Made by a program: the position numbers and the translations under genes
Assembly (NCBI GenBank): GCA_049322215.1
Contig: JBMORU010000001.1
Location: 755-64,754 of the forward strand
Direction: 5' to 3'
Length of the DNA stretch: 64,000 bases
Origin: Patescibacteria group bacterium
GTDB taxonomy: Bacteria > Patescibacteriota > WWE3 > UBA101185 > UBA10185
Shown: positions 1 through 59,202 of the stretch, piece after piece
Layout of the letters: each line of letters opens with the position of its first letter
Numbering within the stretch: position 1 is the stretch's first letter
Notes under the pieces: model-generated
The model's database searches: none
What the model saw: only the letters and a program-made list of their open reading frames with translations
Told to the model about the DNA's origin: nothing

Positions 1-3000
1 AAAAGCTGCGTCTAGCGAGGGTGCTTCTGCTCTTTTTGGAAAAGAAAGTAATGCTTTTTTAAATGATGGGCTAGGTGGATATTGGAAAATGGACGACAGC
101 AGCGTTGATGCCGAAGGTGAAATCAGTACGGATTCTTCAGGAAATGGCAACTCCGGTACGCTCTATGGAGACAACTCCACCGGAGATAACGGTACTGGGA
201 TGGATTGTACAGTATCCGGTAAATTTGGGACTGGGTGTGATTTTGACGGAACAGATGACGAAGTTGATGTCTCTGATAGCACATCACTGCATCTGCAATA
301 TGGGGGTGAGATCACACTAGCGGCTTGGATTAAAACATCTGACTCTTCAGGAAATATCATTGATAAAAGTGCAGGAAATGGAACCAATCGATACGGGTTA
401 GGACTTAACTCAGGCTTACTTAGAGCGGCTTTTGTAGCAACAGATTATTCAGGAGACAATAACATTACAGCTTATGGCAGTACAAGTGTAAATGATGGGA
501 ATTGGCATCACGTTGCCATTACATACGAATACGCAACACAAGCTGTTAAATTTTATGTTGACGGTAATTATGAAATTGAAGACACAGTAGCCCCAAGCGA
601 ATCTCTTGGGACTTCAATAGATGCTCTTACTATTGGTGAGAGCCTTCAAGGGCAAGTCGATGAAGCTCGTATATATAATAGAGCACTTTCCTCTAGTGAA
701 GTACAAAACCTCTACGCCTGGGCACCGGAACCCGCGGCTTACTACTCATTTGATGAAAACACAGGCACATCAACAATAAATGACAAGTCGGGCAACAGCT
801 ATAACGGTAGCTTCACAAGTATGAACGAATCATTGTGGACAACAGGTAAATATGGTGCGGGTTTAAGTTTTGATGGTTCTATGCGTATCGTTGGAACAGA
901 CCCGATAGTAAACAACTACCCATTTTCAGTTACAGGTTGGGTAAAGTACACCGCTTCAGGCGCAACCACAGTGTTATTCGGTATAGGAAATTCAGCAAGC
1001 ACAACAGGTTACTACGAAATTCAGGGTACAGGAGCTGGAGGTATTAGAGCTCTTTCTAATAACGGTTCTGATAACTACACAGGTTCTAATACAGCGTATA
1101 ACGATGGTCAATGGCACCATGTTGCTATGATATGGGCAAGTGCTACGGATAGAAAATTTTATATTGACGGCACACTGGATGGAACATCCACCTCAAGTGT
1201 GGCGTTTCAATCTTCGGTAAATCGGTGGAAAATAGGAGAACGTGCCAGTAATTCAACATGCTGCCGATGGAACGGATATGCGGATGAAATAAAAGTATAT
1301 AACTACGCGCTTACTCCAGGACAAATCATACGGGATATGAATGCAGGGCATCCGCTTGGGGGCTCACCAGTAGGATCTCAAATTGCATACTGGAGTTTTG
1401 ATGAAATGTACGGAGATACAGCAAACGATAGCGTTGGTGACATTGAAGGAGACTTAGGAAACACCGATACTACCTGTCCTGCAACTGGAGCAGACTGCCC
1501 AGTTTGGACACCTAATGGCAAAATCAATGGCGCATTAGACTTCAATGGTACTGATGACAATGTATATGTAAACACCCCTAACAATTCGGGTCCTTTATTT
1601 TTGGAAGAAAAACTAACCATTTCTGCCTGGATAAAAGCAGATGACTCGGAAATTGCCGGCACACAATTAGCTGTAGCGAAACAAGCGTCGTCATATCAAA
1701 TTCATTATGCACTTGGGATTGTAAATAATACTGCATATTTTCGTATAGGAGATGCAAGCACTAGTGTAACATTAAATGGCACCACAGATATTTCTAGTGG
1801 AGGAAGCACTTGGTATCATTTGGCAGGTACTTGGGATATAGACATCGATGGGGGTGCAGTTAATCTGTATGTAAACGGTAAGGTTGAAGACACAGACTAT
1901 CGCACAACAGAAATAAGTACGTGGCAAGATCTATACATAGGGGGTGCAGATGATGGTACCGTATCAAATTTTAATGGCTTAATTGATGAGGTTAAAATAT
2001 ATGGTACTTCTCTAACAGCAGAACAAATCCTCATCGACATGAATTCTAACGCAGCAGCCGACTTTGGCGCTAAAACAAACGAAGCTGCAAGCTTAGAAGA
2101 CGGCGCCGGAAACGACCCAGTTGGCCGTTGGAACTTTAACGAAAACACAGGCACAAGTGCAAACGACACCACAGGCAGTGGAAACTTAGGTACATTAAGT
2201 GGTGCCACATGGACTACAGGTGCTCCAGGAAAAAGCACAGCCCTAGTGTTTGATGGAAGTGATGATTATGTAGAAATAGGCACAGACAGTAAAGTAGATA
2301 ATAGCGCACAAGGTAGTATAACAGCATGGGTTTATCCACATGACATGACCGCCACAAACAGGGCCATATTTGGATTTGGTGGCGCAGCTACAGGATTTGC
2401 AGGTAGATTAGAGTTTTATACATATAACGGAGGTCTATTTATTTCACAAAATACTAATGGTGCAACACAAAACTGGATACGAACAAATTACAGCCAATTA
2501 ACCACCAACAATTGGCACCATGTTGCAGTAACAAGTGATGGGGCAGCTTGGAAACTTTACATAAACGGAGTAGAACAAACTACTCTATTGGGTGCAGGGT
2601 CAAATAATGGTAATTGGTTTAGTGATACCACCGCTACAGCACCCGTGCACACAACTATTGGCAGAATTTTTCATAACGGGACATGGAAAGAACCTTACTA
2701 CGGAAAAATAGATGAAGTAACCTTATACGATTACGAACTTTCCCCTGCTCAAGTAGCCTACAACTACAATAGAGGAGCTCCCATTGGCTGGTGGCAGTTT
2801 GATGAGTGTCAAGGTGCAGTAGCCTACGATGCAAGTGGTAACAGTAACAATGGTTCAATAACCATCGGAGCTACAGGAGATAACACTTCCACAGGTACTT
2901 GTTCATCGGGCACTAGTACCGAAGCTTGGAATAACGGTACCACAGGTAAATTTAACGGAAGCTTAGACTTTGATGGTACAGATGATGCTGTTAGTTCAAC

Positions 3001-3535
3001 TACTCTATCAGGCGATCTTGATGATTTATCCGAGTTAAGTGTTTGCATGTGGGTATACAACATTGGCTCAGATACAGACTATGGCTACTTTGATAATTTG
3101 AATGGCGGTGGTGGTGGTTTTGTACTCATGCGTGATGAGAGCGGAAGTACAAGTGGTAGAACTGATACCTACAAAGTGTATATCTCTGAAGCAAGTGGGG
3201 GTGACACAGTACATCTAGAAGGAAACAACAGTATTGCTCAAATCAACACATGGACACATATATGTGGTGTTTACAGAGAAAACAATGTGTCCGGTTTACG
3301 GTTGTATGTTAATGGGAAAGAAGATACGTTTAGCCCTGTTAGTACGGTTGGAGTTACTAACATAGACAGCAGTGGTACTACTGCCTACATTGGAAGAAGA
3401 CAGGGGGGAGACTATCATAGCGGACAAATTGACGACGTTCGAATATACAACTATGCCCTATCACAAACACAAATACAAAACATAATAAATAACGCAGCTG
3501 CTGCAAGATTTGGACCAAACACTGGCAGTCCATAA
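1..3535 (+). CDS. Giant secreted surface protein with at least 5 tandem Concanavalin A-like lectin/LamG (Laminin_G_3) repeats. It is 5'-partial: the reading frame is open from nt 2 to the window edge.
   Basis: Repeating module about 200 aa long carrying the motifs WxFDE..G(T/D)xxxDxSGNgN.G, FDGTDDYV, NWHHVA(V/I)T and IDEV(R/K)IYN(Y)AL(S/T). The in-frame translation upstream of the ATG at 89 (KAASSEGASALFGKESNAFLNDGLGGYWKMDD) matches an internal linker motif of the downstream paralog, so the true start is outside the window. Confidence 0.8.
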   Translation, partial: KAASSEGASALFGKESNAFLNDGLGGYWKMDDSSVDAEGEISTDSSGNGNSGTLYGDNSTGDNGTGMDCTVSGKFGTGCDFDGTDDEVDVSDSTSLHLQYGGEITLAAWIKTSDSSGNIIDKSAGNGTNRYGLGLNSGLLRAAFVATDYSGDNNITAYGSTSVNDGNWHHVAITYEYATQAVKFYVDGNYEIEDTVAPSESLGTSIDALTIGESLQGQVDEARIYNRALSSSEVQNLYAWAPEPAAYYSFDENTGTSTINDKSGNSYNGSFTSMNESLWTTGKYGAGLSFDGSMRIVGTDPIVNNYPFSVTGWVKYTASGATTVLFGIGNSASTTGYYEIQGTGAGGIRALSNNGSDNYTGSNTAYNDGQWHHVAMIWASATDRKFYIDGTLDGTSTSSVAFQSSVNRWKIGERASNSTCCRWNGYADEIKVYNYALTPGQIIRDMNAGHPLGGSPVGSQIAYWSFDEMYGDTANDSVGDIEGDLGNTDTTCPATGADCPVWTPNGKINGALDFNGTDDNVYVNTPNNSGPLFLEEKLTISAWIKADDSEIAGTQLAVAKQASSYQIHYALGIVNNTAYFRIGDASTSVTLNGTTDISSGGSTWYHLAGTWDIDIDGGAVNLYVNGKVEDTDYRTTEISTWQDLYIGGADDGTVSNFNGLIDEVKIYGTSLTAEQILIDMNSNAAADFGAKTNEAASLEDGAGNDPVGRWNFNENTGTSANDTTGSGNLGTLSGATWTTGAPGKSTALVFDGSDDYVEIGTDSKVDNSAQGSITAWVYPHDMTATNRAIFGFGGAATGFAGRLEFYTYNGGLFISQNTNGATQNWIRTNYSQLTTNNWHHVAVTSDGAAWKLYINGVEQTTLLGAGSNNGNWFSDTTATAPVHTTIGRIFHNGTWKEPYYGKIDEVTLYDYELSPAQVAYNYNRGAPIGWWQFDECQGAVAYDASGNSNNGSITIGATGDNTSTGTCSSGTSTEAWNNGTTGKFNGSLDFDGTDDAVSSTTLSGDLDDLSELSVCMWVYNIGSDTDYGYFDNLNGGGGGFVLMRDESGSTSGRTDTYKVYISEASGGDTVHLEGNNSIAQINTWTHICGVYRENNVSGLRLYVNGKEDTFSPVSTVGVTNIDSSGTTAYIGRRQGGDYHSGQIDDVRIYNYALSQTQIQNIINNAAAARFGPNTGSP

Positions 3536-3607: not shown

Positions 3608-6600
3608 ATGATTAAAAAAACTATCACCAAAATTAAAAAGACACTTAAAGTAAATAAAAAAAGAGTACTTCCTTTTTTTCTTGGTGCCCTGATAATACTA
3701 CTACCTTTAGTTTATTTGACGATTAAAAATCCAAAAGAAGCACAAGCACAGTGGTTTAATGATGGCTGGGCATACAGAATTAAACTTCCTGTTACTAACA
3801 ATACAACCACCGAATCTGATGTATATATATCCTTTACAGGTGCTGATGTATTAGACACCTCTGCAACTGGCAGATTTCAGGCAGACTGTGGTGACATACG
3901 TTTTACAAAAAGAAATGGGCAGTTACTTCCCTACTACATAAATTCTGGATGTGGCACCTCAAGTACAGATATTGATGTATATTTCGAAGAATTTCCTTCT
4001 GGAACACAAGACATTTACATGTATTATGGCAACCCAAGTGTACAAAATGGGTTTGAAGCATCTGCTTTTGCCTCTTCAGTAGACTCTATAGAAATCCAAA
4101 GAAACACGGCAGATGTAAGTGCTAGCAGCGAAACACAAACTGCTCCAACTAACTTTACAGCATTCGGATCTCTTACAAGTGCCTTTGTGCTTAACTTAAA
4201 CAATCGCCGTCAAAATGCGGGATCTACAACCTCTGCCACTAACGAAAGAGTAAATCAACTCTCCGGGCGAATTGAACTTACTGCCACAGATACAATAACT
4301 TTTTCAAGAAGTTTTGGTGACAACGATGATCATAGGTTTTCCTGGGAATCATGGGAATATACAGGTTCTTCAGGAAATAGTGAATTTATTGTTAGATCAA
4401 GAAATACAGTTACTTTAAGTGCAGTTGAGTCAGCCACTGCAACACTTGACACTACACCAACCGATATAAATAACGTAATCCCTTTTATCACTGGAATTGG
4501 TTGCGATTTAAGCGGAACAGCCTCTACTTGTGGTACAGCTGTAGCGTGGATTTCAGGAACTAATACACTAAACGTAGAGCGCGGTGACGGCACCGCTGAA
4601 AATGTAACTGTACAGGTTGTTTCAGTAGAATTCACAGGATCTGACTGGCAAGTAGCACATGGAGACTCAGGGGACGTTTCTGCAGACTCAGGAACAATTA
4701 CCATAGTAGATAATGCAGATGGCACTACTGCAGGCGGTGGAGATATAAGCGACTGGAGTACTGCTGTAATATTTCATCAAACAAAAGGAGACAGTAATGC
4801 AACTAATGTTGCAATTGCCGATACATCAGCAACCTATCGCCCAAACGCTAATACTAATCAAGTGGATTGGGCATTTAATACAGATCATGACTCGGCTGGA
4901 GATAATAGGCATTTTGTGCATGTCTTAAAAAACCCATACATGACGGTAACACGTTTTACTGACACCGGGGCACTTCAAGGAGCCAATAATGTAGACATAA
5001 CTTCTGCTGGAATAACGGATCTATCTACAACGGCTTCAGAAATTTCATGTACTAGCTCGGGAACAGGTACCGCGTTTGGGCGAGGGTGGAAAAATGGGCG
5101 TATAACAAGTACGACAAACTATGAACACTGGACACACCGGTCAGGAAATACAATTGACTGTGCTATTCAAATTATTGATTTGTCTGGAATAGTTGGAAGC
5201 GCAGGCCTTGGAAGTGCCGCGTCCAACTTTACCATGGGCACATCTGGCTCAGAAGAAAAAGGATCTGGCCCTGTTGGGTACTGGAGATTTAACGAAGGTG
5301 CGGACAATACTTGTCCTAATAATGGCAAAGACGCCTGTGATTCAACTTCAAGAAAAAATGATGCAGCCTTTGGTGCTAGTACAGCAGCGCCCACATGGCA
5401 ACTTCAAAATGCTTGTATATTTGGTAAATGTCTTTTATTTGATGGTAGTGATGATGTAGCCACAGTTACAAATACTAACCCAATAGATTTTGATATTGGC
5501 CTTGAGGGTGGGTTTAGTGTAGTTGCTTGGGTGAAAGCCAGCTCAGACGGAGAAAATGACGTAGGTCAAATTTTTCAAAAAGGCACGAATACATATTTGC
5601 GAATTGATTCCGAAGGGAGCGATGGTTTAGCTGATTTGGAATTTAACCTTGATCTTGCAACTACAGATGCCAACGTTAATATAGCAAACGGCATTACTTT
5701 GAACACATGGCATCATGTAACAGTAACCCACGATGGAACAAGTACCATAACTGTTTACATAGACGGGAAAAATTTGGGTTCAAATACAGGATCGGGCACT
5801 ATGGTCTCTGATGCAAATGACTTGCTTATTGGTGGAACAACTACTGCTAATTTTCATGGATTTATTGATGAATTTAAAATTTTTAACTATGAAAGAGCAG
5901 CTAACAAAGTTAAAACCGATGCTATTAGGGGTGCTTCTGCAGACGGCGCATCTGCTGCTTTTGGCAATGAAAACAAAAATTTTCTTAACGAAGGACTTGT
6001 TGGGTATTGGGACATGGATGAAACAACAGGTGGCATAAATGACTCGTCAGGAGGAAGTAATAATCTTGTTAACCACGGAGCTACATCCTTTGTTGCGGGA
6101 AAATTTGGCAATGGTGGTGACTTTGAATCAGGCAGTTCACAATTTTTTACAGAAGGAAGTACCTCAACGCCAGCGTATGTCAATTCTACACAAAGTGATA
6201 TAACAGCCAGTGGAAATAAAAACATACCTATTCCCAGTGGAACAAGCGTGGGAGATCGCCTTATAGTGAATGTTTCAGGAAACGGAGATGGTCTTGGAAG
6301 CTATTTGACACTTAATAGCGTACCTACAGGATGGACACAAATTGGTAGCACTCAAACATATGATGGAGCCAGCTATAGTGTGGGACAAATTGTATTAACA
6401 GGAATTTATGATGGCACAACCCCTACCATGAATGTATCAATACCTAATGATCCCGATGCGAATCTTATAGTAGGAGCATATTCAAATGCAGATAAAGTAG
6501 ACACTTATATTCAAAATATACAAACTACAGCAAGTACTGTTCATACTACCACTGCAATTACACCAAATGTTGGTGGTGGAGCTCTTCTTGTTGCTATGTG

Positions 6601-11485: not shown

Positions 11486-11662
11486 TTGACATTACCCCGG
11501 TGCAAATATAATATGTTTAAGCATTATCCGAAGACAGCAAGTTTCGTTTGCATGAGCGAATTAAATACCTTGCCGAGGAATCTTTTATATTTATTTGCCA
11601 ATTAAGGTTTAATAACTTTAGATTCACTCACGTCTTCGTGAGTATTTTTTTAGGGAAATTTT
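11486..11662 (+). promoter_or_regulatory. rplJ promoter (TTGACA at 11486, -10 TAATAT/TATAAT about 17 nt downstream) plus L10 leader with a terminator-like attenuator hairpin at 11626-11651 (ACTCACG-tctt-CGTGAGT then T7) just upstream of the start codon
   Basis: Near-consensus sigma70 hexamers are read directly. A 7-bp GC-containing stem followed by a run of 7 T lies 12 nt before the rplJ ATG. This is typical of the autoregulated L10 leader. Confidence 0.45.
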
Positions 11663-25067: not shown

Positions 25068-25775
25068 TTATTCTTTTCCTTCAACTACTTCAAGTAAAGT
25101 GGCTGTAACAACAAGTCTATTTAAAGTTGTTCCTGGTGGATCACATGTTTGCAAAGTAAGAGTAGGTTCAATTACCGGGCGTGTCAAAGGATAGGTATTC
25201 CAACCTTTAAGAGTTTCCTTATTTACTACTTCATAAATATAGTCATCCCCTTCATAAAAAACATGAACTCTGTCGCCCAAATCCAACTTACGAAGCAAAT
25301 TAAACACTTTGGCATAATGACCCAATTCCCAAAAATTAATTGAAGAATGCGCAAACAAGTAAACGTTACCTGCATCTTCAGAAGGATATGGAGAAGTAAC
25401 TGCATGCGCTACACCCTCTTTAAGAGCTTCAAAGTAAGCCTCCTCATCTACAACTGAAACATCGGCTTTTACAGGAGCATTGACTCCAATTTTTTCTATA
25501 ACAACAGAAAAATCTTTATTTACAGGATCAATAGTGATTGGAGAAGTTGTTAAGAATCTGGCGAAGGGGCTATCTTCAACACCATTTGGATTATTTATTG
25601 AGATGTCTTGATTTTTTGTACTTTTCCAAAAGTACCACACTTCATCATAAATTATAGGCCCATATGCCAAAATAAGAAAAAACAAACCAAGAATAATAAG
25701 AATGTTTGGAACAATTTTGAAAAATTTGACTCTAAAAGTAGTTAAGCTCATATGTATAAATGATACTATGCCCAC
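25068..25775 (-). CDS. Sortase family transpeptidase (membrane-anchored)
   Basis: N-terminal TM helix. LTLQTCDPPG is the TLxTC active-site Cys motif. The downstream NRLVV has the Arg and LFAHSS has the His. Paralogous to the sortase at 48062-48718. Confidence 0.65.
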   Translation of the reverse strand: MGIVSFIHMSLTTFRVKFFKIVPNILIILGLFFLILAYGPIIYDEVWYFWKSTKNQDISINNPNGVEDSPFARFLTTSPITIDPVNKDFSVVIEKIGVNAPVKADVSVVDEEAYFEALKEGVAHAVTSPYPSEDAGNVYLFAHSSINFWELGHYAKVFNLLRKLDLGDRVHVFYEGDDYIYEVVNKETLKGWNTYPLTRPVIEPTLTLQTCDPPGTTLNRLVVTATLLEVVEGKE

Positions 25776-25815: not shown

Positions 25816-25890
25816 TGGTACCCTTGGAGGGAATTGAACCCACATCTCACCCTTAGGAGGGGTGTGTTCTATCCGTTGAACTACAAGGGC
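25816..25890 (-). tRNA. tRNA-Arg (anticodon CCU)
   Basis: Hand-folded. Acceptor GCCCTTG/CAAGGGT with G1-U72 wobble. D-arm GTTC/GAAC with A20. Anticodon stem CACCC/GGGTG with loop CUCCUAA. T-arm GTGGG-TTCAATT-CCCTC with one U-U mismatch. Discriminator A and CCA are encoded. Confidence 0.8.
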
Positions 25891-25975: not shown

Positions 25976-26065
25976 GGAGGAGTCGCATAGTGGTCTAGTG
26001 CGGCGGTCTTGAAAACCGCTATACCTGCAAGGGTATCGTGGGTTCGAATCCCACCTCCTCCGCCA
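25976..26065 (+). tRNA. tRNA-Ser (anticodon UGA), type II with a long variable arm
   Basis: Acceptor GGAGGAG/CTCCTCC. Anticodon stem GCGGT/ACCGC with loop CUUGAAA. Long variable arm. T-arm GTGGG-TTCGAAT-CCCAC. Discriminator G and CCA. Confidence 0.85.
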
Positions 26066-43389: not shown

Positions 43390-43465
43390 CATGAGGTCAT
43401 GGTGGACCGTACCGGGTTCGAACCGGTGACCTCTACTATGCCATAGTAGCGCTCTACCAACTGAG
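43390..43465 (-). tRNA. tRNA-Ala (anticodon GGC)
   Basis: Acceptor GGGCCGT/ACGGTCC with the diagnostic G3-U70 pair. D-arm GCTC-AGTTGGTA-GAGC. Anticodon stem CTACT/AGTAG with loop AUGGCAU. T-arm ACCGG-TTCGAAC-CCGGT. Discriminator A and CCA are encoded. Confidence 0.85.
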
Positions 43466-43538
43466 CTAACGGCCCTCACCTTAATTTAACTTTGCGCTAC
43501 GACTGCCTACGGCAGTCTAATGCGCTCTACCAACTGAG
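43466..43538 (-). pseudogene. tRNA-Ala 5'-half pseudo-copy: acceptor 5' strand plus complete D-arm (27 nt identical to the functional gene), followed by an unrelated 7-bp hairpin instead of anticodon and T arms
   Basis: GGGCCGTTAGCTCAGTTGGTAGAGCGC is repeated exactly at 43512-43538. Downstream there is no TpsiC loop and no 3' acceptor strand. It contains the hairpin GACTGCC-gta-GGCAGTC. Confidence 0.5.
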
Positions 43539-43561: not shown

Positions 43562-44722
43562 CTAAGATCCTGGAGCCTCATCACCTTTATACATATCTTC
43601 TACCTCGTCACTAAAAACCATGCGTTTATTAGGTAGGTTTTCAATGGTATACATTTTAACAGGTTTCTCTGCTTCAAAGGTAACTACTTCAGGTAAAGTA
43701 TCAATTATTGATAAAACTTCTTCTTCAAGTTTTTCTAAACCAACTCCAGCCACTGCGGAAATGCCAAATACCGTAACACCTAGTTTTTCAAACTCTTTCC
43801 CTATTTGTTCAAAACTTTCATTAATTTCGGTAATATCTATTTTATTAATTACAACTATTTCCTTCTTTTTTTGCAAATCTGCATCATAATCTCCAAGTTC
43901 TTTTCTTATTATTCTGTAAGATTCTAATGCATTCATCACTAAGTCTTTTTCACTGATAGCTAACGGATCAATCATATGTATCAGCATTCGAGTTCGTTCT
44001 ATATGGCGTAAGAAATCATCCCCTAAACCTTTTCCTTCAGAAGCCCCTTCAATTAAACCAGGAATATCAGCGACAATTACTGACTTACCGCTTTTAAGCT
44101 TCCACAAGCCTAAGTTTGGATGAATAGTTGTAAACGGATAACTGGCAGTTTTCGCATTAGAGGATGTTAAATGGTTTACTAATGTACTCTTTCCAGCATT
44201 AGGCATTCCAACTAAACCAATATCAGCAATTAGTTTTATTTCAAGTCTAATTGTCTTTCTTTGTCCTTCTTTGCCTTTTGTAAATTGTGTGGGAGTTCTA
44301 TTTGTAGAACTTTTAAAACGCTCATTTCCTTTACCACCACGCCCACCTTCGGCAATGAGTAAAGTTTGCTCATGCATAACTAAATCGCCAACTAATACTT
44401 CTTCACCGTTTTCACGTACTTCATAAATTAAAGTGCCCACAGGAAGTTTAATTATTAAGTCATCACCTGACTTTCCATGACGTTTCTTTTTTCCGCCTTC
44501 TCCACCTTCTTCAGCTTTATATTTAGGCTTTGCTCTAAAATCCATTAACGTGGCCATGTTATGGTCAGCTACAAAATAAACATTGCCCCCGTTACCCCCG
44601 TCACCTCCATCGGGGCCACCACGAGGTATGTATTTTTCTCTACGAAAAGACACTTTGCCATCACCACCCTTACCGGCAGTTACTTCTATTATAGCTGTAT
44701 CAATTAGCTTATTTTGTTTCAT
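43562..44722 (-). CDS. obg: GTPase Obg/CgtA
   Basis: Gly-rich Obg fold TAGKGGDGKVSFRREKYIPRGGPDGGDGGNGGNVYF. G1 motif GMPNAGKST. Confidence 0.85.
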   Translation of the reverse strand: MKQNKLIDTAIIEVTAGKGGDGKVSFRREKYIPRGGPDGGDGGNGGNVYFVADHNMATLMDFRAKPKYKAEEGGEGGKKKRHGKSGDDLIIKLPVGTLIYEVRENGEEVLVGDLVMHEQTLLIAEGGRGGKGNERFKSSTNRTPTQFTKGKEGQRKTIRLEIKLIADIGLVGMPNAGKSTLVNHLTSSNAKTASYPFTTIHPNLGLWKLKSGKSVIVADIPGLIEGASEGKGLGDDFLRHIERTRMLIHMIDPLAISEKDLVMNALESYRIIRKELGDYDADLQKKKEIVVINKIDITEINESFEQIGKEFEKLGVTVFGISAVAGVGLEKLEEEVLSIIDTLPEVVTFEAEKPVKMYTIENLPNKRMVFSDEVEDMYKGDEAPGS

Positions 44723-44737
44723 AAATGGATTTTAGCA

Positions 44738-45934
44738 TTAATTTGTATAATTTAATGGATTCTGAGCTACACCATTATACTTAATTATATAGTGAACGTG
44801 AGGACCAGTAGAACGCCCGGTATTACCCATTAAGCCTAAAACAGACCCTCTACCTACTTCTTGACCATAACCAACATCAACACGGCTCATATGCCCATAC
44901 ACTGTGCTATAACCGTTTCCATGATCTACTTCTACATGAAGCCCCAACCCCCAAGGATCCCAACCAGATCTTGTAACAACACCACCTGTACAAGAATAAA
45001 TAGGAGGCATACCTTGACCCCAAGGAACAGCAATATCCACCCCATTGTGATACCAAGAAAAATACTGAGTAATAATTCTTGTAGTTGTTGGCCATACACA
45101 ACCAAATGATCCACTTGGAGGCGTAAACGAAGGCGCTGTAAATTGTGCAGGAATTGTTGGTACTATAACCGGCTGCGGAACCTTAGCATCTGGAATAACT
45201 AATTCGGTACCTAACGCAAGACTAGATGTATCTATAATATAGTTAAAGTCAGCAATAGCTTGCTCGGCAACAGAGTATTTTTTAGCAATTGACGCTAAGG
45301 AATCACCTTTTTCAACCGTGTGTATTAATCCCGAAACAGGAGGAATAGTTAATTCCTGCCCTACTTTTAGTATAGTGTTATCAGATAAACCATTAACATA
45401 CTCTAAAGCCGCTACCGATATTTTATATCGATTACCAATAGAAGATAAGGTATCACCTGCCGCTACAGTATATGTAAAAGGTTGATTACGTTTTCTACTT
45501 TCTGGTACTACGGTAGTAGCCATGTTTGATGGAGGAATTATATCTGATACTGTAGACAAATAGTCGGGATTGATTTCTTGACTAACAACAAACTTAGAAC
45601 TGTTAAAAACTTCTCCAAACATAAAAACAATAAGTGCCACCACCATTACAATAAAGTTTGCAATTGGTCTGCCCAATCTTCCTCTCGACCAAATAAGCTT
45701 TCGTACTAAATATCTTTTTGCTTCTCTAGAATACTTGTTACTTAAGTAAACTGAATTTCCAAACAAGTAAAAAACCCCTCGTGTGCGTTTAGCAATGTAA
45801 CTTGCAAAGGCATTAAAAAAACGGGCTACTAAGTGCAAAAAATATGGAATTTTATCAGGTCTTTTCGGTTTCAACCCTTCAAAGGTTAGCTTAACGGTAC
45901 GTTGCGAAATAGACCGTCTAATTATTCGAATCAT
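44738..45934 (-). CDS. LysM-domain M23 family metallopeptidase (cell-wall endopeptidase), membrane anchored
   Basis: Two LysM repeats (YTVAAGDTLSSIGNRY.., HTVEKGDSLASIAKKY..). The M23 motifs HNGVDIA and GNTGRSTGPHVHY are present. Confidence 0.8.
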   Translation of the reverse strand: MIRIIRRSISQRTVKLTFEGLKPKRPDKIPYFLHLVARFFNAFASYIAKRTRGVFYLFGNSVYLSNKYSREAKRYLVRKLIWSRGRLGRPIANFIVMVVALIVFMFGEVFNSSKFVVSQEINPDYLSTVSDIIPPSNMATTVVPESRKRNQPFTYTVAAGDTLSSIGNRYKISVAALEYVNGLSDNTILKVGQELTIPPVSGLIHTVEKGDSLASIAKKYSVAEQAIADFNYIIDTSSLALGTELVIPDAKVPQPVIVPTIPAQFTAPSFTPPSGSFGCVWPTTTRIITQYFSWYHNGVDIAVPWGQGMPPIYSCTGGVVTRSGWDPWGLGLHVEVDHGNGYSTVYGHMSRVDVGYGQEVGRGSVLGLMGNTGRSTGPHVHYIIKYNGVAQNPLNYTN

Positions 45935-46033: not shown

Positions 46034-46573
46034 CTAGTTAAGGTCGCAGCGAACTTTTTCTTCAAAAGTAGCTAAAGCAGGTTTTCGATACTTAAGCAAA
46101 TAAATTCCGTAAGAAATTAAAGATAAAGAAACTATATATAAAACTATTTGGCTAGAGCCCGTGTCAGGTACAGGAGTTGTACTTTCAGATGTTTCTTCCG
46201 TAACAGTTGTAGTTTCTGTAGTATCAGGTAAAGATTGACCTGTATGCAGTGTAAAAGCAATAGTTTCGCCACCTGAAGATAAAAAGCTTACTGAGTGATC
46301 ACCTGTTTCTAATGTAGAGGCGTATGCCCATATACCAGAGCTGTCTGCTGAAGTAGTAGAAGACTCACCATTTATAGTAACTGTTATTGTAGATCCAGGG
46401 TCTGCTATTCCTGTGAATAATGGATTTATTCCGGTATACCACCAATCGGTGTAATTCGCTCCATTTGTATTTAAAGATCCAATAGTTAAAAGCTCAAAAT
46501 CGGCAGCAAAAACCGGAAAGGCAGTACTTAATAAAAACAATATAACAATCAGTGTAGCGCAAATTCTCTTCAT
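46034..46573 (-). CDS. Secreted S/T-rich surface protein with a C-terminal sortase sorting signal variant (VPDTG, hydrophobic helix, KYRK, then a 15-aa tail)
   Basis: N-terminal signal peptide ending at AFPVFA. The C-terminus reads TPVPDTGSSQIVLYIVSLSLISYGIYLLKYRK. Confidence 0.5.
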   Translation of the reverse strand: MKRICATLIVILFLLSTAFPVFAADFELLTIGSLNTNGANYTDWWYTGINPLFTGIADPGSTITVTINGESSTTSADSSGIWAYASTLETGDHSVSFLSSGGETIAFTLHTGQSLPDTTETTTVTEETSESTTPVPDTGSSQIVLYIVSLSLISYGIYLLKYRKPALATFEEKVRCDLN

Positions 46574-46619
46574 ACTTACATAAGTCTAGTAACTTAAAAT
46601 CACGGTGTCAATTAGTATT

Positions 46620-47882
46620 TTAACTAGCTTGATGTAAAGTTTGTAAGAATTCGGCGTTTGTCTTAGTTTTTCTTAATCTTTGAACAACTAAATCAGTACT
46701 TTCTCTATCGTCTAACAAGTCGATCATGCGACGTAGTTTGTACACACTTTCTAATTGAACCTCGCTGTATAATTTTTCTTCATGTCTAGTACCACTAGCT
46801 TTAATATTAATTGCGGGATATATACGACGCTCCGCTAATCCTCTGTCTAAACGCAACTCCATATTTCCAGTTCCTTTAAACTCTTCAAAAATCACATCAT
46901 CCATTCTAGAACCTGTTTCAACCAAAGCTGTAGCAATAATAGTTAAACTGCCTCCTTCTTCAAAGTTACGTGCAGCACCAAAAAAATGCTTTGGCGGATA
47001 TAAAGCAGAAGGATCAAAACCACCGGTTAAGGTTCTACCTGAAGGAGGAACTACCATATTGTATGCACGGGCTAATCTTGTTAAAGAGTCCATTAAAATA
47101 ACAACATCCCTTCCGCTTTCAGCTAATCTTTTTGCTCTTTCAAGTGTTATTTCTGCTATGCGTGTTTGCTGTTCTGCAGATTCGTCAAAGTTACTGGCAT
47201 AAACTTCTCCCTGTACGTTTCTTTTCATATCGGTAACCTCTTCAGGACGTTCCCCAATTAATGCCACCATTAACGCTACGTCTGGGTAATTATTTGTTAT
47301 ACCATTAGCTATATCTTTTAATAGCCAGGTTTTACCTGCTTTTGGAGGAGCTACTATCATAGCACGTTGCCCTTTACCTATTGGGGCAACTAAATCTATA
47401 AGGCGTGTAGAAAGAATATTTGACTTAGTTTCAAGCTTCATCCATACATTTGGGAATATTGGAGTTAATCTTGAAAATAAAGGCCTCTTTTTTGCCTCTT
47501 CAAGAGGCATACCATCAACTTCAACAACTTTTAGCATAGATAAATAGCGTTCGCCTTCTTTTGGAGGACGCGCAACACCTTTTACATGGTCGCCCATACG
47601 TAAACCGCAACTTTTAATTTGAGATTGACTCACATACACATCTTTAGGAAGGTCTTCCTCTACTTTCTCTTCTTGTCTTAAAACACCATAATCAGGCAAT
47701 ATTTCTAAAACACCCATTACTTCAACGGTATCCCCCTCAAAACGGTTACCTCCATTATTAGAGCCATTTCTCGTTGTAGAAGAACGGGTCGAAACAACAC
47801 GTTTTACGGCAGAAGATCTACCGTTACTAGAATTATTCGAATTTCTGGAATTATCTGAATTTGTCTTTGTAGTTCTTGGCAT
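46620..47882 (-). CDS. rho: Transcription termination factor Rho with an N-terminal Asn/Ser-rich insertion
   Basis: RNA-binding N-domain. Walker A GQRAMIVAPPKAGKT. The C-terminal RecA-like domain carries Rho Q/R loops. Confidence 0.85.
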   Translation of the reverse strand: MPRTTKTNSDNSRNSNNSSNGRSSAVKRVVSTRSSTTRNGSNNGGNRFEGDTVEVMGVLEILPDYGVLRQEEKVEEDLPKDVYVSQSQIKSCGLRMGDHVKGVARPPKEGERYLSMLKVVEVDGMPLEEAKKRPLFSRLTPIFPNVWMKLETKSNILSTRLIDLVAPIGKGQRAMIVAPPKAGKTWLLKDIANGITNNYPDVALMVALIGERPEEVTDMKRNVQGEVYASNFDESAEQQTRIAEITLERAKRLAESGRDVVILMDSLTRLARAYNMVVPPSGRTLTGGFDPSALYPPKHFFGAARNFEEGGSLTIIATALVETGSRMDDVIFEEFKGTGNMELRLDRGLAERRIYPAINIKASGTRHEEKLYSEVQLESVYKLRRMIDLLDDRESTDLVVQRLRKTKTNAEFLQTLHQAS

Positions 47883-48061
47883 AACTAACCTCTCATAAAA
47901 AAATAAACATCTTCTATTGTGGAAACATTCTTGGATATCTAGCTAATGCTTGATAGTTGGCGCAAACGCCAAAAGTTTCTACTAAACTAATTTCACGCTG
48001 AAGACGGGAGATAGCCACTGCCCCGAGCTACCTCCCAACTTCAACGAGAAATCTACAGCAC

Positions 48062-48718
48062 TTAATTGGTAAGCAGACCTTTCACGACAAGGCGTTTATT
48101 ATACCCTTGCCCTGGAAGCCAAACCCCACCGCAAGTTATTAAAGTCACAGTAGGTGCTTCAGTAGTTTCAAAGATTTCTAATCTGTTAGGATCCTGGATG
48201 TCAACATAAAATGAATCGGTTATTTTATAAGTGTATTCTCTACCGTATTCATCAACTACCGATACTGTATCATCTACTTTTATATTTTTCAATTGCCAAA
48301 ATGCAGCAGGACTTCCTGTGTTTGTATCATAATGTGCAGCAATAATTAAATTACCATTTTGCCCTGGCATAGCACCATCTTCATACCAACCGGCATCTCC
48401 CCAATTAGCGGGCACACCTAAAGCACCATCTTCTTCTACATTTATATGTACAATATTTAAACTTAAGTCAAAGGTATTTAAATAAAGCTTTTTTGGCTCT
48501 GAATACAAACCCATTCTAAAAGAATCAAAAGGAGACTCTGGTTGAGAAGTAGCTGACTCTAAATTTTTATCTATATTTTCCGTAGGCGAAGCTCCCTCAG
48601 ATATTCTATTAGAAGGTAAAAGATTAATAATACTTAAGCGGTTAGCATACAAAAAGTAACCCAATAGGGGCAAAATTACTCCAATTATTAAAATTTGTAG
48701 AAGTTTTCTTTTAGACAT
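48062..48718 (-). CDS. Sortase family transpeptidase
   Basis: N-terminal TM helix. IIAAHYD has the His. VTLITCGG is the TLxTC Cys motif. KRLVV has the Arg. It lies immediately downstream of the LPDTG-protein gene. Confidence 0.7.
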   Translation of the reverse strand: MSKRKLLQILIIGVILPLLGYFLYANRLSIINLLPSNRISEGASPTENIDKNLESATSQPESPFDSFRMGLYSEPKKLYLNTFDLSLNIVHINVEEDGALGVPANWGDAGWYEDGAMPGQNGNLIIAAHYDTNTGSPAAFWQLKNIKVDDTVSVVDEYGREYTYKITDSFYVDIQDPNRLEIFETTEAPTVTLITCGGVWLPGQGYNKRLVVKGLLTN

Positions 48719-48860
48719 ATTGAAAGTATACCTTTTTAAAGAGAAGGACTAGCTTTCGCTAGTCCAGTCTCAAAAGGTTTGCTTCCTTAGAGGAAGAATA
48801 GATGGGCCGCGTAAGTTGAACGAACCCAACCCATCTATTCTGCCTCCAAGGGCTAGTTAT
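48719..48860 (-). promoter_or_regulatory. Structured intercistronic region between the LPDTG-substrate gene and the sortase gene, with three consecutive stem-loops
   Basis: The stem-loops are GAATAGATGGG-(23 nt)-CCCATCTATTC, CTTCC-tctaa-GGAAG and GACTAGC-ttt-CGCTAGTC. It may be an attenuator or terminator-readthrough element tuning sortase relative to substrate. Confidence 0.3.
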
Positions 48861-49526
48861 TTATTTACTTTTTCTTTTTAAAGCTGTTCCACCTGTAAGC
48901 ATGCTTACACCTAATAAGGTTAAAGCTACAGTAGAACTAGCACCAGTGTCAGGCAATTCAGAAATACCTAATACATCACCTTCACTGCCTTCAAAACATA
49001 CGGTAGCTGTGTCAGAAGCTTCTTCGTTGTCATCGTATTCAACTACAGCCTCATTAACTACACAAATGTATTTATCGTCTTCTACATAATCCTCATCGAT
49101 TTTTACCTTTATTTTGAACTCTTTTTCATCACCAGGCTCAAAATCATCCCAATCTTCTGTTAAATCACCAGATATTAATTTTAAACCATCAGGTAAGTAG
49201 TCATGCATGCGCATATTATCAAAAGATACATCGTCTACACCACCGTCATCGGTTTCATTTTTTACGGTTATTATAAATACGATTTCTTCATCTATATCTT
49301 CATATTTAACAATAAGCTTATCTTTATCGGTGTTATCGTCTTCAAAACGAACTTTCTTTTCTATATCAAAAGACTTATTGATAATGCAAGGTTCACCACC
49401 ACCATATGACTGATCTTCACAGTCAGCTGCATGTGCAGTGTTAGGCACCAAAAGTACTACGCTAAAAATAGCAAGTATAATGCCCAAAAGTATTAAATTT
49501 ATTTTAAATAATTTTGTAGTATTCAT
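48861..49526 (-). CDS. LPXTG-anchored acidic surface protein (LPDTG sorting signal) with a DUF11/CARDB-like domain. The start is placed at the internal Met (MNTTKLF.., signal peptide).
   Basis: The C-terminus reads ISELPDTGASSTVALTLLGVSMLTGGTALKRKSK, the canonical LPXTG + hydrophobic + basic tail. A signal peptide with AHA cleavage site is present. The protein is very D/E-rich. Confidence 0.7.
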   Translation of the reverse strand: MNTTKLFKINLILLGIILAIFSVVLLVPNTAHAADCEDQSYGGGEPCIINKSFDIEKKVRFEDDNTDKDKLIVKYEDIDEEIVFIITVKNETDDGGVDDVSFDNMRMHDYLPDGLKLISGDLTEDWDDFEPGDEKEFKIKVKIDEDYVEDDKYICVVNEAVVEYDDNEEASDTATVCFEGSEGDVLGISELPDTGASSTVALTLLGVSMLTGGTALKRKSK

Positions 49527-49593
49527 AGTTTTTTTATTTTTTAGGCAAGAAAATTTAACAGAATATCTGCTAGTAAATGGGTAACTTTGAAAA

Positions 49594-49622
49594 ATATTAA
49601 CCCAGTTTTGCAAGTTTGTCAA
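49594..49622 (-). promoter_or_regulatory. Sigma70-like promoter for the LPDTG-protein/sortase operon
   Basis: On the minus strand: TTGACA-17 nt-TAATAT, about 65 nt upstream of the MNTTK start. Confidence 0.45.
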
Positions 49623-49705
49623 GGCTATAGGGTTGACAAATTTATAAAGCATACATAAAACATACCATTATTTATGAAGAAAGCAAAGTAGGGGTTTTTG
49701 CTAAT

Positions 49706-49792: not shown

Positions 49793-51241
49793 ATGAAAAC
49801 GCAAAAGAAAGGTTTATTGGCTTTGTTAGCCACGATCGCGGCGCCTTTAATGCTGATTGGTGCTTTTTTGACCTTAGGCAGTGAAGCAAACGCGCAAGTT
49901 CAGGCCTCAGCAGCTCTGGTTATCCCCCTTTCTACTGACGCCCCGGTAGCAGATGCAAATCCTGTCACCGGAACCGGCGAACAGTGTTGGGACGATGCCC
50001 CACGGATTGTTGATGGAAAACTGTACGATATCTGCGTTGGCTGGAACTACGCCTCTGGTGGAGCATTGAGTACGCACACCATTTGGGCCCCACAATGGCA
50101 AACGGATGCTTTCACAAGAACAATGTGGGGAGGAAATGTTGAAATGGTTGTACAATACAACGACGGCTATACATGCAGCGGACAGTCAGCGAAAGTTGAA
50201 ACTGGGCTAACTCATGCAGTTGTAGCTGTAGGCACTGGCGGCGGTAATATTGGATTTGGACCTGGCGAAGGAGCAGTTTGCGAGCACGAGGTGACGGACT
50301 TTAACACGTACGTTTTTCTTCTCACAAACGTGATTTCTGGCACCGAATTCCAAGTTCTTTCTGACGGCTTCCCTGTGTATGAGGAAACGCTACATGGTGG
50401 TTTGGCCTTTACAGTTACTGCTTCAATTCCCACCTACGCGGAATGGTCTTTGATTCAAACAAACTTGACCCCTCCTGGAGGTGAAGCTGTTCAATCTAGC
50501 CAAGGGTATACATATAATCCCAATCCATCAGAACCTCCTGTGGTACCCGAACTGAATGTCTCTTTGATCACGCCGGTGTTACTCACACAACCTATCACTG
50601 ACACAAGCACGACAGTTGCAGACAACAACGACATTTGCTACAGCGCGCCCGCGGTAGGCTACCTAAGCAACGCATCTCTTCCTGAATGTGTACGGTTCGA
50701 AACTTCGGCACCTACCTCTACGATCGAACTGTTCTACACACCGGAAATGGTAGAGACCAACGGAGATCAAACACTGTGGACCTTTGACCCGGCCAATATG
50801 GATCTCATTGTTACTTACGCTGATGGCACCCAGATGATCTGCGATAGTATCTACATCGTGCCTGGCCCCATGAAAATCGAAGTTATCGGCCAAGGCAGTA
50901 TCGGTCAAGGTGGTGGTGTTTCTGATTCGTGCAACTACGTGCCCGCCTTCCCCATGAAGAAATTCGGCATCAACGTAGCAAACGTCTCGGAACCCACATC
51001 TGTTGTGATGGCCTATGGAGAAAGCAATCCAGAAATCCTGACAAGCCAAACCATCACTACCGATACAGAAATCGTCGTAGAAGTTCCAACCTACCAATGG
51101 ACGTACGTGAGCACCTGGACCTGCGACGCAAACACGGCGCTTATCGGTGGCTTATGTGCACCTTCGCAAGCAGAAGTATCCGGCTGGATGTACTTGCCCC
51201 CGCAACTTACATTCATGCCTGTCGTGTTCAACAACCAGTAA
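49793..51241 (+). CDS. Secreted hypothetical protein (482 aa), GC-rich (about 50%)
   Basis: Signal peptide MKTQKKGLLALLATIAAPLMLIGAFLTLGSEANA. No sorting signal. Composition is distinct from its neighbours. Confidence 0.5.
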   Translation: MKTQKKGLLALLATIAAPLMLIGAFLTLGSEANAQVQASAALVIPLSTDAPVADANPVTGTGEQCWDDAPRIVDGKLYDICVGWNYASGGALSTHTIWAPQWQTDAFTRTMWGGNVEMVVQYNDGYTCSGQSAKVETGLTHAVVAVGTGGGNIGFGPGEGAVCEHEVTDFNTYVFLLTNVISGTEFQVLSDGFPVYEETLHGGLAFTVTASIPTYAEWSLIQTNLTPPGGEAVQSSQGYTYNPNPSEPPVVPELNVSLITPVLLTQPITDTSTTVADNNDICYSAPAVGYLSNASLPECVRFETSAPTSTIELFYTPEMVETNGDQTLWTFDPANMDLIVTYADGTQMICDSIYIVPGPMKIEVIGQGSIGQGGGVSDSCNYVPAFPMKKFGINVANVSEPTSVVMAYGESNPEILTSQTITTDTEIVVEVPTYQWTYVSTWTCDANTALIGGLCAPSQAEVSGWMYLPPQLTFMPVVFNNQ

Positions 51242-57665: not shown

Positions 57666-57827
57666 ATGACACTCTTTTCGCGCTTGAATGTTCTATAACT
57701 TAAGCCTGTGACTTTCTCAACAGTAAAAAAAATGGCGTAGAAAATACAATGCAGGTTTTATCCTTTATTGTACTTACTACGCCATGTGTCGCGTTAGTTA
57801 GTAGAACTAGCTAACTTTTGGTTTTGA

Positions 57828-58898: not shown

Positions 58899-59202
58899 GT
58901 CTATTCTCCTTATTAAGATTTTGTGGATCTGGCTTACAAAAAAGCAAAAATTTGACTATTTTGTGCCTTGAAAAGGTACTAAATTTAATACCCTTACAAG
59001 GCTCAAAATATTTAGTTCATAATGAATTCTGCATATATTATACCCTATAGTTAGAGTTGCGACAATAACATTTAAGTTAAATACAGAGTGTAAGGTGAGT
59101 GTATGGGGATTTCAATTTTGATTTGTGATCAATTTTGAATTTACACACTCACTAAACTAATTACAAGTTGCGTTTCGTTGTAATTAGGGCTCCCACTAAA
59201 AC

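Follow-up and report, generated by a model that had tools for sequence, protein, structure and literature searches.

Class F sortases encoded beside an LPXTG substrate (NF033748, with the Pfam families PF04203 and PF00746) are the closest described protein system to the locus considered here, and a small number of cis-acting RNA regions invite comparison with its intercistronic spacers. The eps-associated RNA (EAR) promotes processive antitermination in the exopolysaccharide operons of Bacillales, and autoregulation of rho by attenuation is established in Escherichia coli and Bacillus subtilis. We analysed a 64-kb stretch of DNA (hereafter the window) from a metagenome-assembled genome (MAG) of the ultra-small Patescibacteria (Candidate Phyla Radiation, CPR), with a GC content of ~35%, in which genes for an LPDTG-anchored surface protein, a sortase, Rho, a protein with a C-terminal VPDTG motif, an M23/LysM peptidase and Obg follow one another on the minus strand between 43.5 and 49.7 kb. 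The 142-nucleotide (nt) spacer between the substrate and sortase genes and the 179-nt spacer between the sortase gene and rho each contain a conserved RNA hairpin, termed motif A and motif B respectively. We propose, with a probability of roughly 45%, that these hairpins are cis-acting elements in the operon mRNA which may be recognised by a conserved factor and tune downstream expression. The protein-coding part of the locus (sortase plus LPXTG substrate) is ordinary, and the novelty provisionally rests in motifs A and B rather than in the protein components.

Folding of the substrate-sortase spacer (48719-48860, minus strand) gave a minimum free energy of -69 kcal/mol (z = -9.63), and none of 200 shuffled sequences was as stable, in agreement with the high degree of structure noted in a preliminary description of this DNA. 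The three perfect stem-loops reported there are instead one long imperfect hairpin with internal loops, followed by a hairpin with a GNRA loop; the putative third stem (CTTCC..GGAAG) overlaps the 3' arm of the long hairpin and thus represents an alternative pairing. The long hairpin is motif A (48787..48849, minus strand), which comprises 63 nt and is capped by a variable apical loop; its helix includes a G-G mismatch, a tandem U-U internal loop and a conserved U-G wobble. For comparison we used 65 loci encoding relatives of the sortase in species-representative genomes, 59 from Patescibacteria (WWE3-type) and six from Chloroflexota. The spacers of related loci have very low folding energies and nearly all share the motif A hairpin, for which the consensus is ...TTGGG-(variable)-AGAATGGTTG-G-GT-TT-GG(loop)CC-TT-AC-G-CGACCATTCT-(variable)-CCTAA. 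In an alignment of 55 distinct copies the 27 pairs are 96.1% paired, and compensatory double changes occur at 19 of them, so that the spacer structure, for which covariation in homologous loci had been suggested as a check, is indeed conserved. This level of pairing was reached by none of 500 shuffles and fell to 41-51% when the pairing partners were displaced by 1-3 columns, and RNAalifold recovered the same helix independently (21 of 28 pairs compensatory). Little or no variation is seen at the unpaired G-G and UU/UU positions, and the internal-loop sequence is unchanged across genomes in which the flanking proteins are only ~40% identical. Of the 55 copies, 51 keep the U-G wobble (U33-G57), the lower stem is rich in G-U pairs, and with the covariance model the window copy scores 66.2 bits in the sense orientation and 32.4 bits in the antisense. 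Since conserved G-U wobbles permit the structure on the sense strand only, and hence in RNA, the comparative sequence data show motif A to be a real, selected sense-strand RNA structure.

Motif B (47996..48046, minus strand), which was missed in the preliminary description, is a conserved hairpin of 51 nt with a GGGAGG/UCUCCC stem and the invariant loop GGGGCAGUG, located in the window 15 nt past the sortase stop codon and 113 nt before the rho ATG. Its consensus is ..TGAAG-TT-GGGAGGTAGC-tC-GGGGCAGUG-GCTATCTCCC-at-CTTCAG.. and, among 78 distinct copies, the 19 pairs are 95.8% paired with compensatory changes at 14. A G-U wobble (G24-U45) is retained in 70 of these copies, and the covariance model gives 77.1 bits in the sense orientation and 33.9 bits in the antisense for the window. 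By the same kind of comparison motif B is also shown to be a selected sense-strand RNA structure. The complement of its loop (CACTGCCCC) is matched exactly nowhere else in the window, and matches with one mismatch occur there at chance level. Translation of a leader peptide from a GTG inside motif B was considered and rejected, as by eye the frame reaches a stop within a few codons (CTTTAG) in many loci. A small GC hairpin (TTGGCGTTTGCGCCAA, window 47957-47972, minus strand) without a T-run lies between motif B and the start of rho.

Neither motif matches a family in Rfam 15 at the gathering score, and a search of the same release at E values of up to 10 yielded only chance matches to microRNA precursors (21-24 bits, against gathering scores of 59-80). 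The motifs also appear undescribed in the full-text literature on sortase-associated RNAs of CPR/WWE3 and on rho leaders, a provisional statement given the incomplete coverage of that literature. Of the 59 Patescibacteria loci, 55 have one strong copy of motif A and 54 one strong copy of motif B according to covariance models, without exception on the strand of the genes; neither motif is detected in the six Chloroflexota sortase loci. Weak copies are found in locus L050 (motif A, 41 bits) and in L028, in which motif B is weak and truncated. L050 additionally encodes a tandem pair of sortase homologs (1838-3032), with its motif A before the second and a motif B after the second. When metagenomes were scanned without regard to context, using only the apical sequence of motif A, 59 contigs were retrieved, each with a single match even where the contig reached 162-697 kb. 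The match lies downstream of an ortholog of the substrate gene in 55 of these, the other four contigs starting too near to the motif, and upstream of a sortase gene in 48; six contigs end too soon to judge, and the other five have room but no detected sortase. Motifs A and B are thus shown, at the level of sequence, to be single-copy elements specific to the substrate-sortase-rho operon and more strongly conserved than the flanking proteins.

A palindrome acting at the DNA level, such as an operator, a recombination site or a repeat resembling the repetitive extragenic palindromic (REP) or miniature inverted-repeat transposable (MITE) elements, would fit with motifs A and B being long inverted repeats, among the strongest in the window. 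We consider this highly improbable, as the conserved G-U pairs become A-C mismatches on the opposite strand, the covariance models strongly favour one strand (approximately two-fold higher scores in the sense orientation) and the unpaired loop sequences are invariant and asymmetric. The dispersed-repeat form of this explanation was rejected, each motif being present as a single copy per 64-kb window, per locus and per metagenome contig of up to 697 kb. Two further long inverted repeats in the window (57720-57795 and 58949-59016) score 19-20 bits with the motif A model and lack its conserved nucleotides; these are probably generic hairpins or terminators.

The position of the hairpins relative to the flanking genes is flexible. 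Motif A is found at a median of 47 nt (range 5-376) past the substrate stop codon and 2-126 nt before the sortase ATG, this latter distance being ≤15 nt in 40% of loci. Motif B lies at a median of 10.5 nt past the sortase stop codon (within 15 nt in two-thirds of cases, and sometimes overlapping the stop) and 10-179 nt before the rho ATG (median 72 nt). In several loci the hairpins occupy the whole intergenic gap, for example in L006, where only 6 nt and 9 nt surround motif A; there they would form part of a polycistronic mRNA, since no room is left for promoters. No Shine-Dalgarno sequence is apparent by eye between motif A and the sortase ATG, although no formal scan was made. This geometry bears on the idea that the spacers harbour independent small RNA genes, for which a -10-like hexamer seen by eye just upstream of motif A in some loci and a T-run after motif A in 36% of loci could be cited. 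However, in many loci motif A is separated by 5-9 nt from the substrate stop and by 2-10 nt from the sortase ATG, and motif B lies 16-26 nt from the rho ATG, which leaves no room for a promoter or terminator, and the -10-like boxes would start transcription inside the conserved lower stem. Small RNA genes at these positions are therefore very unlikely.

The second hairpin of the window spacer (48738..48765, minus strand), with the sequence GGACTAGC-GAAA-GCTAGTCC followed by TTCTCTTT, resembles an intrinsic terminator in having a GC stem, a GNRA loop and a T-run, and is lineage-specific. Motif A differs from this description: the window copy is followed by GGAAGCAAACC rather than by a T-run and so does not have the form of an intrinsic terminator, and most copies of motifs A and B elsewhere likewise lack a T-run. 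With at least five T residues in the eight downstream bases as the criterion, T-runs follow motif A in 28 of 78 loci (36%) and motif B in 27%, compared with 18.5% of random positions, and a terminator-like site follows motif A in eight of the 78 loci. Given that T-runs are modestly enriched and stringent terminators are rare, we rejected the possibility that motif A is a plain terminator. The preliminary description had suggested that the spacer acts as a partial terminator or attenuator. In its favour, in the window the terminator-like hairpin comes directly after motif A, and the interval from motif A to the sortase ATG yielded no promoter-like site, so that an attenuator role is plausible, on these sequence features, in the window genome; the conserved element itself, however, is not a plain terminator.

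Sequence immediately upstream of motif A may offer an alternative fold. The 30 nt preceding the motif pair with its variable 5' lower arm at -11.2 kcal/mol in native combinations, against -8.5 ± 0.27 kcal/mol in permuted ones, and pairing of -14 kcal/mol or lower is found in 30 of 78 loci (~40%), whereas the symmetric control (the 3' arm of motif A against downstream sequence) gave no such signal. The upstream segment thus co-varies with the lower stem. Taken together with the invariant unpaired nucleotides of motif A, this could be read as a ligand- or protein-sensing switch in which the apical half of motif A is the sensor, and the variable lower stem and the upstream anti-arm form the expression platform. 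We regard such a switch as improbable. Motif A consists of one irregular helix and has neither a junction nor an obvious pocket, 60% of loci, the window included, lack the alternative pairing, and the downstream genes (sortase and rho) point to no ligand.

Under the proposal that the motifs are cis-acting elements read by a factor, motifs A and B would uncouple the low-demand sortase and rho cistrons from a heavily transcribed surface-protein gene. A very stable helix beside a sortase start that lacks an evident Shine-Dalgarno sequence would limit ribosome entry or read-through, and in the window genome the canonical terminator-like hairpin would reinforce motif A. Invariant unpaired nucleotides in both motifs suggest recognition by a conserved trans-acting factor: the internal loops of motif A (G-G, UU/UU and U-G) and the GGGGCAGUG loop of motif B would serve as docking sites, and the docked factor (e.g. 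a protein or nuclease) would set the output. The upstream pairing with the 5' arm of motif A in ~40% of loci could then act as a two-state switch.

Several observations count against this proposal. The five metagenome contigs without a sortase gene keep both motifs between the substrate gene and rho, and loci L032 and L038 have the order A-sortase-B-rho without a substrate gene upstream. Only 36% of loci have a T-run after motif A, and few have a stringent terminator. The distances from motif A to the sortase ATG (up to 126 nt) and from motif B to the rho ATG (10-179 nt) vary so widely that start-codon occlusion is not a general mechanism. A link between the alternative pairing and motif A abutting the ATG was considered, and is a non-significant trend only (Spearman 0.23, p ~0.06-0.08), and the window copy of motif A lacks the alternative pairing. 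Co-transcription, the RNA ends and a regulatory effect of motifs A and B are inferred from sequence, and no candidate for the trans-acting factor was identified.

The loci that have lost or rearranged genes are also informative with respect to simpler explanations. A reading of the motifs as leaders of the sortase gene only was rejected, since motifs A and B persist without a sortase, and a reading as 3' untranslated region (UTR) of the substrate gene only is weakened by the presence of motif A without an upstream substrate gene in L032 and L038. Similarly, the earlier suggestion that the spacer sets the sortase-to-substrate ratio does not hold in this simple form, as motif A persists in loci without a sortase or without a substrate. 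Loci L070/L111, L087, L094 and L102 lack a sortase and keep the order substrate-A-B-rho; in L102 small open reading frames (ORFs) are apparent by eye between the two motifs. In L008 extra sequence parts the sortase gene from rho and motif B stays beside rho. Locus L058 is rearranged, with motif B present and then other ORFs in place of rho; a tRNA-like sequence on the reverse strand (3690-3760, identified by eye) replaces motif A in its substrate-sortase spacer.

It is possible, if doubtful, that motifs A and B are instead processing or stability sites, cut by RNase III or another endonuclease to release separate substrate, sortase and rho mRNAs, in which case the hairpin-protected ends would give each mRNA its own half-life and abundance. 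The helices are approximately two or more turns in length (27 bp in motif A and 19-21 bp in motif B), compatible with the ~20 bp or more expected of an RNase III site, and the sortase ORF is closely framed by the motifs, motif A lying ~10 nt ahead of the ATG in 40% of loci and motif B a median of 10.5 nt past the stop codon. Such a function would tolerate variable distances and would retain its value between the substrate gene and rho once the sortase was lost. Internal loops in RNase III sites of the T7 R1.1 type direct cleavage, which also agrees with the irregular helices seen here. Recognition by RNase III is only weakly sequence-specific, however, and this leaves the invariant loop nucleotides across a phylum-level clade unexplained.

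The association with rho raises a further alternative, in which motifs A and B gate the access of Rho to a pyrimidine-rich transcript and the level of Rho feeds back on read-through into the sortase gene and rho. The motifs accompany rho even in the absence of the sortase or the substrate, motif B stays near rho in L008 despite the insertion after the sortase gene, the 3' arm of motif A and the alternatively paired upstream segment are rich in C and U, and self-attenuation of rho in E. coli and B. subtilis provides a precedent. Autoregulation of rho by attenuation is discussed in PMC11599450. Stable hairpins are nevertheless the opposite of classical rut sites, the spacers between motif B and rho are A/U-rich and not C-rich, and motif B is not followed by rho in L058. 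We therefore consider a Rho-linked autoregulatory attenuator rather unlikely.

A third conserved element is found upstream of the substrate gene. In the window this is TTTCTTGCCTAA (49541..49552, minus strand; "motif C"), located in the 5' UTR, which occurs as an exact match only once in the window and represents a variant of a conserved TTYC-CTGCC-AAA box. In 54 of 75 related loci, compared with 2.1 expected, CTGCC occurs in the stretch of up to 130 nt that precedes the substrate ATG. The position of the box is bimodal, with distances to the ATG of 13-32 or 60-90 nt, and some loci carry two copies 10-16 nt apart. The box and GGCAG in the invariant loop of motif B are complementary over no more than 5 nt, and both sequences are invariant. 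Three of the sortase-less loci (L070, L087 and L094) also lack the box. We would tentatively extend the proposal of factor-read elements to the view, which we hold to be doubtful, that motifs A and B, possibly together with the CUGCC box, are the RNA parts of an undescribed lineage-wide circuit read by a trans-acting factor, possibly Rho itself. If this were so, in genome-reduced Patescibacteria the circuit would link production of the major wall-anchored surface protein and of its sortase with the level of Rho, the global termination factor, and the motifs, far from being passive hairpins, would form a new class of RNA operator that responds to a protein or ligand.

The sortase gene between the two motifs (48062..48718, minus strand) encodes a protein of 218 amino acids (aa) with an N-terminal transmembrane (TM) segment and the residues H129, TLITC196 and R209. 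It matches the Pfam Sortase family (PF04203; E = 1.2e-22, 80.4 bits against a cut-off of 26.6), and the H129/C196/R209 triad is invariant across 27 homologs, which bears out the earlier identification of a TLITC sortase. The His/Cys/Arg triad, the TLxTC motif and the N-terminal membrane anchor are features shared with class F sortases. Among the sortase class models the best match is class F (NF033748) at 92.6 bits, which does not reach the curated cut-off of 166, followed by class E at 38.9 bits; among solved structures the nearest in sequence is 4d70 (E = 1.9e-12). The protein is 100% identical to an NCBI entry from a 1.11-Mb contig ("MAG: class F sortase [Patescibacteria group bacterium]"), which carries the class F name despite the sub-cut-off score, and is also present on a 69.6-kb Logan contig. 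A second, unlinked sortase (25068..25775, minus strand), also noted previously, matches Pfam Sortase (E = 4.6e-16, 59.2 bits) and has the catalytic motifs FAHS, TLQTC and NRLVV, as read directly from the translation. This protein has no close solved relative and falls in no class among the class models, so that the classification of the sortases by hidden Markov models (HMMs), proposed as a check, confirms both as members of the Pfam family and leaves the first below the class F cut-off and the second without a class. One tRNA gene is located directly upstream of the second sortase gene.

The substrate gene is preceded by a sigma-70-like promoter (TTGACA-17-TAATAT; 49594..49622, minus strand; 10 of 12 matches), present as previously described, although promoter-like matches in the region are no more frequent than in shuffled sequence. 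In homologous loci, promoters with at least 10 of 12 matches are found 46-99 nt before the substrate ATG in 23 of 75 cases, eight of them perfect. The substrate ORF is open to 49652; the location of the promoter indicates that the real start is probably the ATG at 49526, 67 nt downstream, giving a protein of 221 aa (MNTTK...) with a signal peptide. This acidic surface protein (48861..49526, minus strand) contains one Ig-like, DUF11-like beta-sandwich and ends in LPDTG, a TM segment and KRKSK. The anchor matches Pfam Gram_pos_anchor (PF00746; E = 6.8e-6, 26.4 bits against a cut-off of 20) and TIGR01167 (25.0 bits against 15.9), and the C-terminus has the characteristics of an LPXTG sorting signal; of the earlier view that this is a DUF11-like LPDTG protein the anchor is thus upheld, whereas the DUF11 match is weak (19.9 bits, below the cut-off). 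An AlphaFold (AF2) model with a mean predicted local distance difference test score (pLDDT) of 84.7 comprises a signal peptide, one beta-sandwich (strands 53-178) and a C-terminal TM helix, and a fold search with this model returned only generic Ig-like sandwiches as structural neighbours. Orthologs are ~200 aa in length, carry PF01345/PF24346, end in ...SDTATVCYG..ELPxTG + TM + KK and keep ELPxTG in ~50 cases. A paralog of 374 aa (P0112) is encoded on the same 1.11-Mb contig outside the window; it is 60% identical to the LPDTG protein over the Ig-like domain and ends in ELPETG + TM + KRRK, so that the genome has at least two canonical sortase substrates. The substrate ortholog lies directly upstream of the sortase gene in ~50 of the 59 Patescibacteria loci, and this adjacency supports the view that the two form a dedicated pair.

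The protein ending in VPDTG (46034..46573, minus strand) is a secreted Ig-like protein whose gene is inserted in the cluster, with a promoter-like sequence (TTGACA-17-TAGACT) before it at 46583-46611. Its C-terminus has the VPDTG motif, a TM segment, KYRK and a 15-aa cytoplasmic tail, all as given in the preliminary description. The scan for sorting-signal-like tails, run on the 64-kb window, found only the LPDTG and VPDTG ORFs. No anchor HMM of Pfam or NCBIfam matches the VPDTG protein, which with Val in place of Leu does not conform to the LPXTG sorting signal. Only two homologs were found among 5.8 billion proteins; one keeps VPDTG and the other lacks the Pro-Asp, and the cytoplasmic tail ("..ATFE..", 15 aa past the basic residues) is conserved in all three proteins of the family. 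The lack of an anchor HMM match and the loss of the motif in one of two homologs speak against this protein as a second substrate, and it may simply be a C-terminally anchored membrane protein. Nothing ties either motif variant to either sortase, and the idea of substrate specialisation between two sortases is consequently not upheld. No related locus has a counterpart of the gene, and this comparison identifies it as an insertion specific to the lineage, lying between rho and the gene for the M23 peptidase.

The remainder of the cluster is conserved. Its general layout is a strong promoter, LPxTG Ig-like protein, motif A, class-F-like sortase, motif B, rho, M23/LysM and obg, and synteny is kept in ~50 loci. 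In the window Rho (46620..47882, minus strand; TIGR00767, 558 bits) has an S/N/R-rich N-terminal extension of ~50 aa, and the downstream members of the cluster (43562..45934) are the M23/LysM peptidase (44738-45934, minus strand) and the Obg GTPase (43562-44722, minus strand). On the other side of the substrate gene an ORF of 482 aa (49793-51241, plus strand) with a signal-peptide-like N-terminus and ~50% GC, compared with 35% for the genome, has no Pfam or NCBIfam match and is missing from every related locus; it was probably acquired recently by horizontal transfer, inserting between a GT4 gene and the substrate gene. Other RNA features identified with Rfam are a ribosomal protein L10 leader (window 11510-11659, plus strand; RF00557, 54 bits) and three tRNA genes (25819-25890, minus strand; 25976-26062, plus strand; 43403-43475, minus strand).

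To our knowledge, Patescibacteria combine tiny genomes and few recognisable regulators with almost no described cis-regulatory RNAs. The operon described here encodes the main sortase-anchored surface protein together with its sortase and Rho, an essential termination factor, and the strong selection on motifs A and B implies an important function. Both are candidates for new Rfam families, and their covariance models, defined helices and invariant loops provide testable handles on the control of gene expression, mRNA processing and the regulation of Rho in an uncultivated lineage.

In comparison with known systems, the protein pair resembles other class F sortase systems in that the neighbouring gene encodes a substrate with LPxTG, a TM segment and a basic tail, and differs from them in its score against the class model, in its host, a Patescibacteria MAG, and in belonging to a conserved cluster that also contains rho, an M23 peptidase gene and obg. 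With the intercistronic hairpins processed by RNase III (T7 R1.1-type sites, rpsO-pnp and the rnc leader) motifs A and B share long irregular helices between cistrons and a flexible position, but those hairpins show little primary-sequence conservation across phyla, whereas motifs A and B have invariant unpaired nucleotides. The attenuated rho leaders of E. coli and B. subtilis are likewise regulatory RNA regions upstream of rho, as motif B, 10-179 nt before the rho ATG, might be; in contrast, they are unstructured C-rich rut regions with no conserved hairpin, and no homology to them was found. EAR differs from motifs A and B in sequence and structure (Rfam gave no match), the latter being single hairpins without terminators consistently downstream of motif A. 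It nevertheless offers a parallel as a conserved structured RNA between the cistrons of a cell-surface operon that, as we suggest for motifs A and B, is cis-acting and orientation-specific with terminators nearby.

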